Origin: Bacillota bacterium
GTDB lineage: Bacteria > Bacillota > Ch66 > Ch109
DNA length: 64,000 nucleotides
Direction of reading: 5' to 3'
Assembly: GCA_050952625.1 (NCBI GenBank)
Contig: JBMNLH010000001.1
Location: 800,001-864,000, forward strand
Shown: positions 27,733 to 30,435 of the stretch, piece by piece
Layout of the letters: every line of letters starts with the position of its first letter
Numbering within the stretch: the stretch's first letter is position 1
Made by a program: the position numbers and the translations under genes
Notes under the pieces: generated by a model
The model's input: the letters and a program-made list of their open reading frames with translations, nothing else
Told to the model about the DNA's origin: nothing
Database searches by the model: none

Positions 27733-28293
27733 ATGAGCATTGAAGCAACCGGCAGTGGAGTGCCGCCTTGGCTGATTAATTCTAATTCAAGTACCGCAAA
27801 CACCGAGAAAACCGGAACTGAACAGGCGGTAATGGGAAAAGATGCCTTCCTTAAAATTCTGCTAACTCAATTAAGGTATCAAAACCCATTAGAGCCAGTT
27901 AAAGATACTGATTTTATCGCTCAGATGGCTCAATTTAGTTCTTTGGAACAGATGCAGAATATGAACAAAAACCTGGAAGCTGCTTTGCAAACCTTGAGTT
28001 TGTGGCAGGAAAACTCCTTTCTGAATTCACAAATTAGTTGTGCCCTTGATTTGGTTGGCCGTGAAATTGAGTATCGTTCTGGTGAGGAATACAAGACCGG
28101 TACAGTTGAGGCAATTAGGGTAAACGGGGGAATTCCCCGATTAGTGGTTAATGATGAGGAAGTATATCTAGAAATGGTTGCCGGTATTAAACAGGCGGAA
28201 ATTCAGGCGGAAATTAAAGAGGGAGCAACGGAGGATGAACAATCGGATTCTTTACCCACAACCGATCCAACCGATCCAACCGAAGCCGCTTAA
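27733..28293 (+). CDS. flgD: Flagellar hook capping protein FlgD
   Basis: GKDAFLKILLTQLRYQNPLEP, FIAQMAQFSSLEQM. Confidence 0.95.
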   Translation: MSIEATGSGVPPWLINSNSSTANTEKTGTEQAVMGKDAFLKILLTQLRYQNPLEPVKDTDFIAQMAQFSSLEQMQNMNKNLEAALQTLSLWQENSFLNSQISCALDLVGREIEYRSGEEYKTGTVEAIRVNGGIPRLVVNDEEVYLEMVAGIKQAEIQAEIKEGATEDEQSDSLPTTDPTDPTEAA

Positions 28294-28630
28294 CCAGCCG
28301 GTAAAGGGTCAGAATGAGAATACGCATGGAACCGCTCCTAGTAATTCGTTTCAAAATGTGCTCAATGATCAACTCAGGACAATCAAGTTTTCCCATCATG
28401 CACGGCAGCGGTTGCAAGCCCGTAAAATCTCGCTGAGTGGGGCTGAACTTAAACGGCTGGAGGAAGGAGTAGCCAAAGCGGCCCAGAAAGGAGCAAGAGA
28501 CTCTCTGGTGTTAATGGATAAATTAGCCCTGGTAGTCAGTGTCAAAAATCGGACCGTGATCACGGCGGTGGATGAAACTAGCCTGAAGGAAAATGTGTTT
28601 ACCAATATTGATAGTGCGGTAATTGTCTGA
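28235..28630 (+). CDS. Flagellar operon protein, TIGR02530 / DUF3766-type
   Basis: IKFSHHARQRL..R.I, AAQKGARDSLVL, VVSVKNRTVITA, ENVFTNIDSAVI; located between flgD and flgE. Confidence 0.88.
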   Translation: MNNRILYPQPIQPIQPKPLNQPVKGQNENTHGTAPSNSFQNVLNDQLRTIKFSHHARQRLQARKISLSGAELKRLEEGVAKAAQKGARDSLVLMDKLALVVSVKNRTVITAVDETSLKENVFTNIDSAVIV

Positions 28631-28677
28631 AGTTTAGCGGATGTTTCGAAGTATTAGTAGTATTAGTAGTTAGAAAT

Positions 28678-28730
28678 GGGCTGGACCTCTAGGAGGGGGC
28701 CCCTAAGCCGCGGAACAACTGAGGCGGCTT
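28678..28730 (+). ncRNA. Two-hairpin structured element in the flgE 5' region (function unknown)
   Basis: Hairpin 1: GGGCT-GGA-CCTC-TAG-GAGG-G-GGCCC. Hairpin 2: AAGCCGC-GGAACAACTGAG-GCGGCTT. GC-rich island in an AT-rich spacer, no U-tract. Confidence 0.6.
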
Positions 28731-28761
28731 GAATTTGGCGATAAAGGAGGTCGATTGATAG

Positions 28762-30315
28762 ATGATGCGTTCCATGTTTGCCGGAGTCACCGGCCTGCGA
28801 AATCACCAACTCCGGCTGGACGTAATCGGGGCAAATATTGCCAACGTGAATACCACGGGTTATAAACGGAGCCGGGTCACTTTTCAGGATGCGTTGTATC
28901 AGCAAATACGGGGTGCCTCCCGGCCGCAGGATAACCGGGGCGGGACCAACTCGATGCAGGTCGGGTTAGGGATGAACGTGGGGACCGTCGATATCATTCA
29001 TACCGGCGGCAGTTCGCAGCCGACCGATAAGATTACCGATCTGTGTATCCAGGGCGAGGGTTTTTTTATTACCAATGATGGGGGACGTAATGTCTATACC
29101 CGGGCCGGCACTTTTGATTTTGACGTCAGCGGGAATTATTATAATACCGCTAACGGTCAGCGGGTCATGGGATACATGGCCGATGTGGAAACCGGGGAGA
29201 TTAATTACTCGACCTTAGTGCCGATTGACATCTCCGGACATAGAAGTGTTCCACCCAAAGCCACGGCAAATGTTGAACTGACTGGCAATGTCGATTTAAG
29301 TCACCCGGTCAACCAGTTACCCAAATCAATCACCAAAACGGTCTTTGACTCGCTGGGAGCAGAACACGAATTAAAATTTGATTTTGATAAGGATAATGTG
29401 AATCTAACGGGTAATCTGGATAGAACAACCGGTGACCCTGCTCAGGTATCTGTACCTGTTTGGAATTCTGCGGGTGTTGACGAATCCGTAACCATTGACT
29501 TCGCACTGGTGGGGGGATCAGACAGCCAATGGGTCGCAACTATAACATATCCTGACTCAACGACAACAAATATCACTATTGATTTCAACAACCTGGAGCG
29601 ATTTAGCCTCCCAGTTGAAGTTAGTGGTGAGACGGTTAACGTCACCTTTGACCCAACTAACCTTACCCAGACTATCAGTGGCGGTACCAGTAGCGTAACC
29701 GGATCGGAACACCATGGCCCGGGGGTCTGGAATATTACGACGTACTTTGATGGAGTTGCCCCGGCAGCCCCGACATCCTCTAACCCGATCCAGTTTGACA
29801 GCAAAGGCCAAATAATTGATCCCTTAAATATTACGGTGCAGGCCACTGGTTTAGCCAACAAAGCGGATGATATGAACATTGCAGTTGATTTAAGCCAACT
29901 GACCCAGTACGAAGCGGAATGGACCGCCTGGCCGGAGACTCAGGATGGTTACGCATCGGGAGATCTGCGGAGTTTTACAATCGATATTACCGGGACAATC
30001 ATGGGGAGCTACTCCAATGGGGAGACCAAAGCCCTGGGCCAGGTAGCCTTAGCCACTTTTCAAAATCCAGCCGGCCTGTTGCCGTTAGGGCAAAACCAAT
30101 TTGATGAATCAGCTAACTCAGGCCCCCCGGATATTGGCGAACCTGGAGTAAAAGCGCGCGGGACGATTATTCCCAGTTCTTTAGAGATGTCCAATGTCGA
30201 TCTTTCGCAGGAGTTTACCGACATGATTACCACGCAGCGGGGATTCCAAGCCAATTCCCGGATCATTACGGCCTCAGATGAGATGTTGCAGGAATTAGTT
30301 AATTTAAAACGTTGA
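28762..30315 (+). CDS. flgE: Flagellar hook protein FlgE
   Basis: MMRSMFAGVTGL...IGANIANVNTTGYK, YTRAGTF, LEMSNVDLSQEFTDMITTQRGFQANSRII. Confidence 0.96.
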   Translation: MMRSMFAGVTGLRNHQLRLDVIGANIANVNTTGYKRSRVTFQDALYQQIRGASRPQDNRGGTNSMQVGLGMNVGTVDIIHTGGSSQPTDKITDLCIQGEGFFITNDGGRNVYTRAGTFDFDVSGNYYNTANGQRVMGYMADVETGEINYSTLVPIDISGHRSVPPKATANVELTGNVDLSHPVNQLPKSITKTVFDSLGAEHELKFDFDKDNVNLTGNLDRTTGDPAQVSVPVWNSAGVDESVTIDFALVGGSDSQWVATITYPDSTTTNITIDFNNLERFSLPVEVSGETVNVTFDPTNLTQTISGGTSSVTGSEHHGPGVWNITTYFDGVAPAAPTSSNPIQFDSKGQIIDPLNITVQATGLANKADDMNIAVDLSQLTQYEAEWTAWPETQDGYASGDLRSFTIDITGTIMGSYSNGETKALGQVALATFQNPAGLLPLGQNQFDESANSGPPDIGEPGVKARGTIIPSSLEMSNVDLSQEFTDMITTQRGFQANSRIITASDEMLQELVNLKR

Positions 30316-30370
30316 TTTAGTCTTTATTCTATCTAACTAAAAGCATATAAGCTAGGAAGCGCATAACGGC

Positions 30371-30410
30371 GATGAGCCGTGGCGGTCCAGCTCGACCGGC
30401 ATGGCTCATC
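30371..30410 (+). other. Long GC-rich hairpin between flgE and flbD (no U-tract)
   Basis: GATGAGCCGTG-G-CGGTC-CAGCTC-GACCG-G-CATGGCTCATC: 16 bp with one G.G mismatch. Confidence 0.7.
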
Positions 30411-30435
30411 ACCCCACACGAGTGGAGGAGTATTC

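Follow-up and report, generated by a model that had tools for sequence, protein, structure and literature searches.

The leader of the flagellin gene hag of Bacillus subtilis is controlled by FliW and CsrA, and the Termite-flg RNA motif is located before flagellar genes. Polycistronic mRNAs can also carry stabilizing hairpins between their cistrons, as in malE-malF, with its repetitive extragenic palindrome (REP), and in Rhodobacter puf. TIGR02530 is a protein family described by its position between flgD and flgE in the flagellar operon. Here we present a member of this family encoded in a stretch of 64,000 nucleotides (“the window”) from a Bacillota bacterium (GenBank assembly GCA_050952625.1, contig JBMNLH010000001.1, positions 800,001 to 864,000 of the forward strand), together with a two-hairpin RNA that lies between this gene and the hook protein gene flgE. 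The RNA has a fixed anatomy, conserved loops and covarying helices, it always lies on the gene's strand when next to it, and its distribution across genomes follows that of the gene. The two may form a dedicated pair that acts on the messages of high-copy axial subunits.

Among the closest described counterparts of this RNA are the FliW-CsrA flagellin leaders of B. subtilis hag and Campylobacter jejuni flaA, where, according to PMC4894983, axial subunits are regulated post-transcriptionally and GGA hairpins lie in the leader near the ribosome-binding site (RBS). The control considered here is putative, its targets are flgE and flgG, and the motif differs in having a fixed two-hairpin architecture with a GA...GA loop and in being distributed with TIGR02530 rather than with CsrA. 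Termite-flg (Rfam RF01729), assigned to the termite hind gut habitat in the relevant part of Weinberg et al. (2010, PMC2864571), is like our leader RNA a structured candidate whose mechanism is unknown. However, its model of 106 positions reaches only chance level in the window's own genome (at best 16.5 bits, E 3.1), with no match at the three motif copies there, and it is absent from Rfam scans of the window region and of 16 loci. On the protein side, the family to compare is DUF4258 (PF14076), which the pertinent section of PMC11980606 places in the RelE/ParE BECR superfamily with activity unknown, and which a 2026 preprint (10.64898/2026.08.28.747851) puts, in the part that deals with it, in the Colicin-like branch; “flagell” has zero occurrences in the available portions of these two texts. 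TIGR02530/Flagellar_put itself is listed as “function unknown” in the part of a 2026 preprint on flagellar gene content that covers it (PMC13277936), and the mentions of flbC in PMC3188533 are table entries marked “not found.” Literature searches, which did not cover bioRxiv preprint supplements, returned no functional study of a TIGR02530/PF12611 protein.

The two-hairpin leader RNA

Hairpin 1 consists of an outer stem, GGGC(U)/GGCCC, an asymmetric internal loop in which a conserved GGA(C) stands opposite one or two purines, and an inner stem, CCUC/GAGG. Hairpin 2 has a covarying stem, with changes on both sides in 5/5 pairs, that closes a 12-nt loop of the form N-GA-NN-R-A-NN-GA-N, here GGAACAACUGAG. 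When positions 28674-28736 are folded alone, the two hairpins form at -25 kcal/mol with a z-score of -2.0 (8 of 200 shuffles are as good), and the fold of the whole spacer between gene and flgE has a z-score of -1.2. The single-sequence fold is only modestly better than chance, and it is the comparison across relatives that is decisive. The same architecture follows the TIGR02530 stop codon in 20 loci of relatives. In a MAFFT alignment of these 20 sequences, the share of paired cells is 89.9%, versus 78.0% in shuffles, changes on both sides are seen in 10 of the 14 pairs, and the observed covariation is reached by none of 500 shuffles; sliding the partners lowers pairing to 34-51%. In the same 20 sequences G14 and G15 are invariant and A16 is at least 90% conserved, and the loop of hairpin 2 has G39, A40, A44, G47 and A48 as its invariants (first-sequence numbering). 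Compensatory changes are found in all three helices in alignments of 20, 71 and 22 sequences, the last two of which were fitted to a covariance model and hence lean towards it, and in each case 0/500 shuffles reach the score. The outer stem of hairpin 1 covaries, and its inner stem does so in the copies before flgG. The two-hairpin RNA that the initial annotation had seen after the gene is real: at 28678-28731 stands a conserved structured element.

The covariance model, R1, was built from the 20-locus alignment. At E <= 0.017 it matches immediately downstream of 67 of the 80 named TIGR02530 genes, in every case on the strand of the gene. These 67 loci are labelled as Bacillota of many classes, Desulfuromonadales, some Armatimonadota, and metagenome-assembled genomes (MAGs) labelled Ignavibacteriota or Bacteroidota. 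The other 13 loci belong for the most part to Armatimonadota, plus one Sericytochromatia-labelled MAG, and seven of them keep a stem-GGA(C/U)-stem like that of hairpin 1 followed by a different second hairpin, as judged by eye and unscored. The G-U pairs, together with the single orientation of 67/67 gene-adjacent matches, fit an RNA rather than a DNA site. No family was found by Rfam 15 at 28675-28736 at E <= 10, nor at the motif in 16 loci at E <= 1, and neither Rfam 15 nor the literature searches gave a description of this leader.

In 32 of the 67 loci the start of hairpin 1 lies inside the upstream stop codon or directly at it, and in five more it lies 1-5 nt beyond (37/67 in total); most of the flgF-linked copies described below are equally close to theirs. 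A ribosome terminating on the upstream gene must therefore usually melt hairpin 1. Such melting would fit a translation-coupled mechanism, and also a RelE-like cut at the stop codon.

Two further readings of the structure were set aside. A K-turn or K-loop, as a candidate explanation of the GA...GA loop and the GGA internal loop, would not suit the purines opposite GGA, which are A or G about equally, unlike in a standard K-turn. Sequestration of the Shine-Dalgarno (SD) sequence by hairpin 1 was considered as well, the minimum free energy structure of the whole spacer pairing GACCUCU with the flgE SD while the centroid does not; it is rejected as a general mechanism because the flgG copies carry other inner stems. 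As an observation apart, the inner stem of flgE copies (28690-28697 in the window) is almost invariant CCUC/GAGG, resembling an anti-SD paired with an SD, and the flgE RBS is often GGAGGUC (28745-28751); the inner stem is free to covary in flgG copies, and the constraint is an extra one at flgE.

Copies away from the gene and distribution across genomes

In the window's own genome, R1 has three strong matches: the one in the window (67.3 bits), one on contig C6 (56.5 bits), and one on contig C1 at 571169-571231 on the minus strand (40.8 bits). The C1 copy lies outside the window, with no TIGR02530 gene nearby, and 19 nt before flgG; the gene that follows it scores 321 bits against the FlgG equivalog (cut-off 252.75). 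A fourth match, of 18.2 bits, falls inside a 565-aa open reading frame (ORF) read as RecN-like and is taken as chance. The C6 copy belongs to a second locus (2435-2791 of C6, also outside the window), where the RNA comes after a TIGR02530 gene of 104 bits and before another flgE-like gene, which starts with GTG. Either the genome has a further flagellar hook locus here, or the assembly, for which contamination is estimated at 2.56%, includes foreign DNA.

The set of non-adjacent copies comprises 22, namely 20 from other genomes, the own-genome C1 copy, and that of genome G035. Among them, 17 precede a rod-protein ORF (by N-terminal likeness, confirmed by hidden Markov model (HMM) for two), and 17 directly follow a rod-protein ORF, so that the usual context is flgF-RNA-flgG. 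One stands before an ORF that resembles flagellin (its best row, “flagellin Hag,” has 185 bits, under the cut-off, on a cut ORF), and for four the 150 nt downstream contain no flagellar ORF. In an alignment of the 22 that was fitted to the model, the inner-stem pairs vary (UA 12 and CG 9 at one, GC 15, CG 4 and UA 2 at the other) and GGAC is retained. The leader RNA is not tied to flgE, being found also before flgG and, once, before a flagellin gene, which the initial annotation had missed.

Several neighbors of these copies can be recorded. At loci L173 and L157, copies stand after a rod-protein gene with no flagellar gene next, which suggests that the element can also sit at a 3' end; at L157 a terminator-like hairpin with a T-run comes next after the motif. 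On C1 at about 571.8 kb, some 0.6 kb from the flgG-linked copy, there is an S-adenosylmethionine (SAM) riboswitch (84.8 bits; locus L024, 2121-2252, plus strand) upstream of a gene read as homocysteine-methyltransferase-like, and in locus L163 the flgG copy has a T-box leader (114.3 bits) in its vicinity.

The initial annotation had proposed that co-occurrence of gene and RNA be examined, and the distribution of the RNA does follow the gene. The sample holds 302 genomes, 151 from the window's phylum and 151 from a second phylum reached via a Geobacteraceae locus, and the RNA is counted as present where R1 matches at E <= 0.001. Of the 151 genomes of the window's phylum, 100 have the RNA, 105 the TIGR02530 gene and 99 both, and in the second phylum RNA and gene occur in the same 5/151. 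Taken over both phyla, the RNA is present in 104 of the 110 genomes with the gene versus 1 of the 192 without it. When the six gene-only genomes are searched with filters off, the motif appears in weaker form directly behind the gene in four (25.8, 24.7, 22.1 and 15.1 bits), one has hairpin 2 only (12.7 bits), and one has nothing convincing (8.1 bits). In the sole RNA-only genome, G035, flgE is cut by the contig start and the match is a flgF-flgG copy.

The hook protein domain FlgE_D2 without TIGR02530 is found in 12 genomes of the window's phylum, 11 of them with no RNA match; FlgE_D2 occurs in 78 genomes of the second phylum, and 76 of these have neither RNA nor gene. Of the 88 genomes with FlgE_D2 and no TIGR02530, 87 (11 + 76) lack the RNA at E <= 0.001, and the 88th is G035. 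Five stretches from flgE-bearing genomes lacking the gene have a flgD-flgE gap of at most 29 nt or an overlap, and in three flagellate genomes of this kind only 32-46 nt separate flgF from flgG, which leaves no room for the motif. Non-adjacent copies are found only in genomes with the gene, except in the contig-cut G035. Matches of 11-13 bits at two flgE loci without TIGR02530 lie inside the flgE coding sequence and are taken as chance.

The TIGR02530 protein and its locus

The 131-aa protein of the window is clearly a member of TIGR02530/PF12611, and its gene lies between flgD and flgE (Table 1). It scores 120.5 bits against the TIGR02530 HMM (cut-off 83.2) and 50.4 bits against PF12611 (cut-off 21.1), a signature of 24 residues at the C-terminus. 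The family counts 1987 representatives (50% identity) at E <= 0.001. Across 51 diverse members, H55, A56, K85, T110, T123, I125 and D126 are invariant, and F52, S53, R59, R63, G86, N105, T107 and others are at least 90% conserved; H55, R59, R63 and K85 are thus invariant or nearly so, with N105 and D126 also conserved. The motif IKFSHHARQRLQARKI and the strands SLVL, LVVSV and RTVITA, which had been picked out from one sequence, are present in the ORF and are family features rather than chance, since they are conserved across the 51 members. The isoelectric point (pI) of the core is above 8 in 37 of the 51, and that of the window protein is 9.99.

In the AlphaFold2 model, the mean predicted local distance difference test score (pLDDT) is 87.1, and about 97 over residues 50-131. 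Residues 1-36 are predicted to be disordered, without secondary structure. The core (about 45-131) is modeled as three helices, a three-strand meander, a helix and a strand: a helix at 37-48, a short strand at the F-S motif, helices at 54-62 (H-A-x-x-R-L-x-x-R) and 69-84, strands at 89-94, 97-102 and 107-113, a helix at 114-119 and a last strand at 127-130. The initial annotation had likened this protein to the DUF4258-type BECR ribonucleases and suggested a structure search as a check; the outcome is mixed. In sequence, the N-terminal F-S-x-H-A-x-x-R-L-x-x-R-x-I does align with DUF4258: hhalign against an alignment of 31 DUF4258 proteins gives 93.2% probability (E 3e-7) over 29 columns only (query 43-71), and weak DUF4258 Pfam matches occur in 24/51 family members (best E 0.0017). 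In structure, Foldseek against the PDB has no match at E <= 0.001, the best row being a RelE at E 0.47, and the fold match is below the level that the structure-comparison tool itself calls distinctive; the best structural neighbors of the model are all toxins of the superfamily. A sequence search of the PDB gave nothing below E 0.4, and an ESM Atlas search with residues 40-131 gave no usable match.

The resemblance to DUF4258 and the RelE/ParE toxins lies in the N-terminal strand-helix motif F/W-S/T-x-H-x-x-x-R-L-x-x-R-x-I and in the predicted helices followed by a three-strand meander ending V-I-T-A. The differences are that the protein stays below the DUF4258 cut-off of Pfam (12.6 versus 25 bits), shows a conserved C-terminal sequence peculiar to it, VFTNIDSAVI (PF12611), as well as a disordered extension at the N-terminus, and has no antitoxin partner, its gene being fixed between flgD and flgE. 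Type II toxins have a small antitoxin gene adjacent, and here the flanks are flgD and flgE; in relatives, the RNA and then flgE follow. We read the TIGR02530 protein as BECR-like, a putative rather than a demonstrated member of BECR, on the basis of the modeled fold and the shared motif. A complex prediction of the core with FlgE scored 0.00, which is evidence neither way. A genuine DUF4258 gene was seen in genome G121, which has no TIGR02530: it lies directly after one of two flgE copies (locus L147, 1413-1706, minus strand), near a serine-recombinase-like ORF, and is probably a mobile toxin-antitoxin remnant.

The flagellar operon of the window runs fliI, fliJ, a gene with an MgtE_N domain, fliK, flgD, the 131-aa gene, flgE, flbD, fliL, fliM and onward. 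The 3' end of flgD and the start of the TIGR02530 gene overlap by 59 nt in different frames (28235-28293), and the start is preceded by its own RBS, AGAGGGAG, which suggests translational coupling to flgD. The spacer between its stop codon and hairpin 1 is 47 nt and made of GTATTAG-like repeats, and the spacer from gene to flgE is 131 nt, versus 179 nt in a relative of the same genus (locus L004) with more repeats. This repeat-filled spacer contrasts with most other species, in which hairpin 1 abuts the stop codon. The sequence GGAGGU(C/U) precedes flgE in relatives too.

Table 1. Features of the flgD-flbD region, in window coordinates
Feature	Position	Strand	Basis
flgD (hook cap protein)	27733..28293	+	ORF; PF03963 78.8 bits
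TIGR02530/PF12611 “Flagellar_put” gene, 131 aa	28235..28630	+	ORF, HMM matches
GTATTAG-like short tandem repeats between TIGR02530 stop codon and RNA motif	28643..28672	+	by eye, approximate coordinates
Full match of covariance model R1	28675..28736	+	67.3 bits, E 1.9e-14 in own genome
RNA hairpin 1	28678..28702	+	fold, conservation, covariation
RNA hairpin 2	28704..28731	+	fold, conservation, covariation
flgE Shine-Dalgarno region AAGGAGGU, 10 nt before ATG	28744..28751	+	sequence
flgE (hook protein), 517 aa	28762..30315	+	PF06429, PF07559, PF00460, PF22692
Strong hairpin 3' of flgE, no U-tract after	30368..30413 (core 30371-30410, 11+5 bp)	+	fold versus shuffles
Small 4-bp hairpin, 3' arm entering flbD RBS	30414..30425	+	fold, sequence
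flbD, TTG start, 65 aa	30436..30633	+	PF06289 103.2 bits

A second RNA structure stands on the other side of flgE. The U-tract-less hairpin reported there in the initial annotation holds up (z -3.79, 0/200 shuffles as good), and it is recurrent. No T-run follows it and it is absent from the terminator scan list; an intrinsic terminator needs both stem and U-tract, and here only the stem is present. In a survey of the window and 31 named loci in which the end of flgE and 100 nt beyond are readable, a hairpin at z <= -2 follows flgE in 27/32, and a 50-nt window reaches -20 kcal/mol or lower in 23/32, versus 6/32 for control windows inside flgE. Only one of these 23 strong hairpins has at least six U in the next 10 nt. 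That flgE is bracketed by RNA structures holds generally. The post-flgE hairpins are like the intercistronic stabilizing hairpins in being strong, U-tract-less and directly after the most needed cistron; they differ in that their role is putative and in that they are alike in position and strength, not in sequence.

A possible protein-RNA pair and its alternatives

The reading that we put first, tentatively and at not quite an even chance, is that of a dedicated protein-RNA pair, in which the protein recognizes the unpaired nucleotides of the leader and alters the stability or the translation of the flgE or flgG segment. The contact between the two, as well as the direction and chemistry of its effect, we infer. 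The TIGR02530 protein and the RNA would then be one post-transcriptional control module for high-copy axial subunits. The RNA would serve as a cis-acting leader just upstream of the RBS of flgE, in many genomes of flgG, and rarely of a flagellin gene. The small, mostly basic protein, with its putative RelE/ParE-like (BECR-like) core and its DUF4258-type His/Arg motif, would bind the unpaired parts, namely the GGAC internal loop and the GA...GA loop. It might then cut or protect the polycistronic mRNA at this place, or tune translation initiation of the downstream gene. At flgE, the U-tract-less hairpin may add a 3' barrier, so that the flgE segment would outlast its neighbors. Metatranscriptome contigs (four sets; 5-9% of words) are short pieces, mostly from relatives, and are uninformative on RNA processing.

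Several points weigh against this reading. The DUF4258 Pfam match of the window protein, at 12.6 bits for a cut-off of 25, covers residues 52-67 only, and the profile match spans just 29 columns, the N-terminal motif alone. The core is acidic (pI < 6.5) in 13 of the 51 members, and the disordered 36 residues at the N-terminus would be compatible as well with a protein that the flagellar apparatus exports. As for distribution, gene and RNA are adjacent and inherited with the flagellar cluster, so that gains and losses that are independent are few: about seven families lack the gene in the first phylum, and in the second it is probably carried by a single clade. Of the 100 genomes in the window's phylum that have the RNA, only 39 give at least two matches, and the lack of a second copy in gene-less lineages is therefore only modest evidence. 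Finally, the match that reaches E <= 0.001 in genomes G059 and G091 lies elsewhere than next to the gene.

The most serious competitor, which we nevertheless regard as somewhat unlikely, is that the RNA works in cis by itself, as a translation enhancer, a standby site or a 5' stabilizer read by the ribosome and general RNases, and that the TIGR02530 protein has no connection with it and helps hook-rod assembly as an exported or structural factor, the two co-traveling by adjacency in one type of flagellar cluster. Disordered N-termini occur in flagellar export substrates, and the predicted disorder of residues 1-36 can be likened to them. The location of the gene between those of hook cap and hook is consistent with such a helper, as is the weak fold evidence for an RNase-like protein. 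The position of hairpin 1 against the stop codon in 37/67 loci suits a translation-coupled element without a special protein, and the invariant CCUC/GAGG of the flgE copies, like an anti-SD with an SD, goes in the same direction. However, the flgG-linked copies, far from the gene, are found only in gene-bearing genomes, and the invariant unpaired GGAC and GA...GA point to a specific partner rather than a bare structure. In addition, the inner stem of the flgG copies covaries away from CCUC/GAGG, so SD mimicry is not general.

A more specific proposal is that TIGR02530 is a domesticated BECR-fold protein acting on mRNA at the conserved leader, either as a cutter or as an exported repressor, which we consider doubtful. 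As a cutter, it would make a RelE-like cut on a ribosome paused at the upstream stop codon, given that hairpin 1 is at this codon or at most 5 nt after it in 37/67 loci. The flgE or flgG message would then start with a protective 5' hairpin, that of flgE ending in a 3' hairpin as well, and more hook and distal-rod subunit would be made from inside a long operon. As a repressor, the protein would block translation while bound to the leader, and its disordered N-terminus would let the flagellar export gate remove it. Synthesis of hook and rod subunits would thereby be tied to assembly, comparable to FlgM export for late genes.

A role of the leader as a CsrA target, in which translation of flgE and flgG would be repressed through the GGA of hairpin 1, the GGA often present in the hairpin 2 loop, and that of the SD, is clearly improbable. 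The GGA of hairpin 1 is invariant and near a GGAGG ribosome-binding site, the genome encodes CsrA (2 matches, 89.2 and 43.6 bits), and binding of CsrA to GGA motifs in flagellar mRNAs is established (PMC4894983). However, the conserved GGA is in an internal rather than an apical loop. CsrA is also present in two of four tested flagellate genomes without TIGR02530 and motif (G042 and G096), and a control search found it in B. subtilis, Escherichia coli and Thermotoga maritima, none of which matches TIGR02530. In this small sample, the motif therefore follows TIGR02530, not CsrA. The least probable explanation, and a very unlikely one, is that the hairpins act on transcription, attenuating it or terminating it in part and so reducing read-through into flgE or past it: a recurrent strong hairpin after flgE could pause or partly stop RNA polymerase, fitting a lower need for downstream products, but U-tracts are missing there (1/23 with at least six U, and the window hairpin unlisted by the terminator scan), the 5' motif likewise lacks a T-run and has conserved loops, and termination before the most needed gene makes little sense.

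The widespread TIGR02530 gene is now linked to a conserved and previously undescribed RNA that marks the high-copy axial genes flgE and flgG, and this RNA constitutes a new structured class found in several phyla. The link between gene and RNA gives a concrete hypothesis that can be tested experimentally. Control of flagellar subunit synthesis at mRNA leaders is already known, and a dedicated protein-RNA pair would bring new players to it. If the fold likeness holds, a toxin-type RNase fold would have been put to housekeeping use. In either version, cutting or exported repressor, the TIGR02530 protein would be the first with a toxin fold to have been recruited for dedicated regulation of flagellar mRNAs, with an RNA motif of its own. 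More broadly, the finding bears on how bacteria with one long flagellar operon make about 100 hook subunits and only few of the neighboring products.

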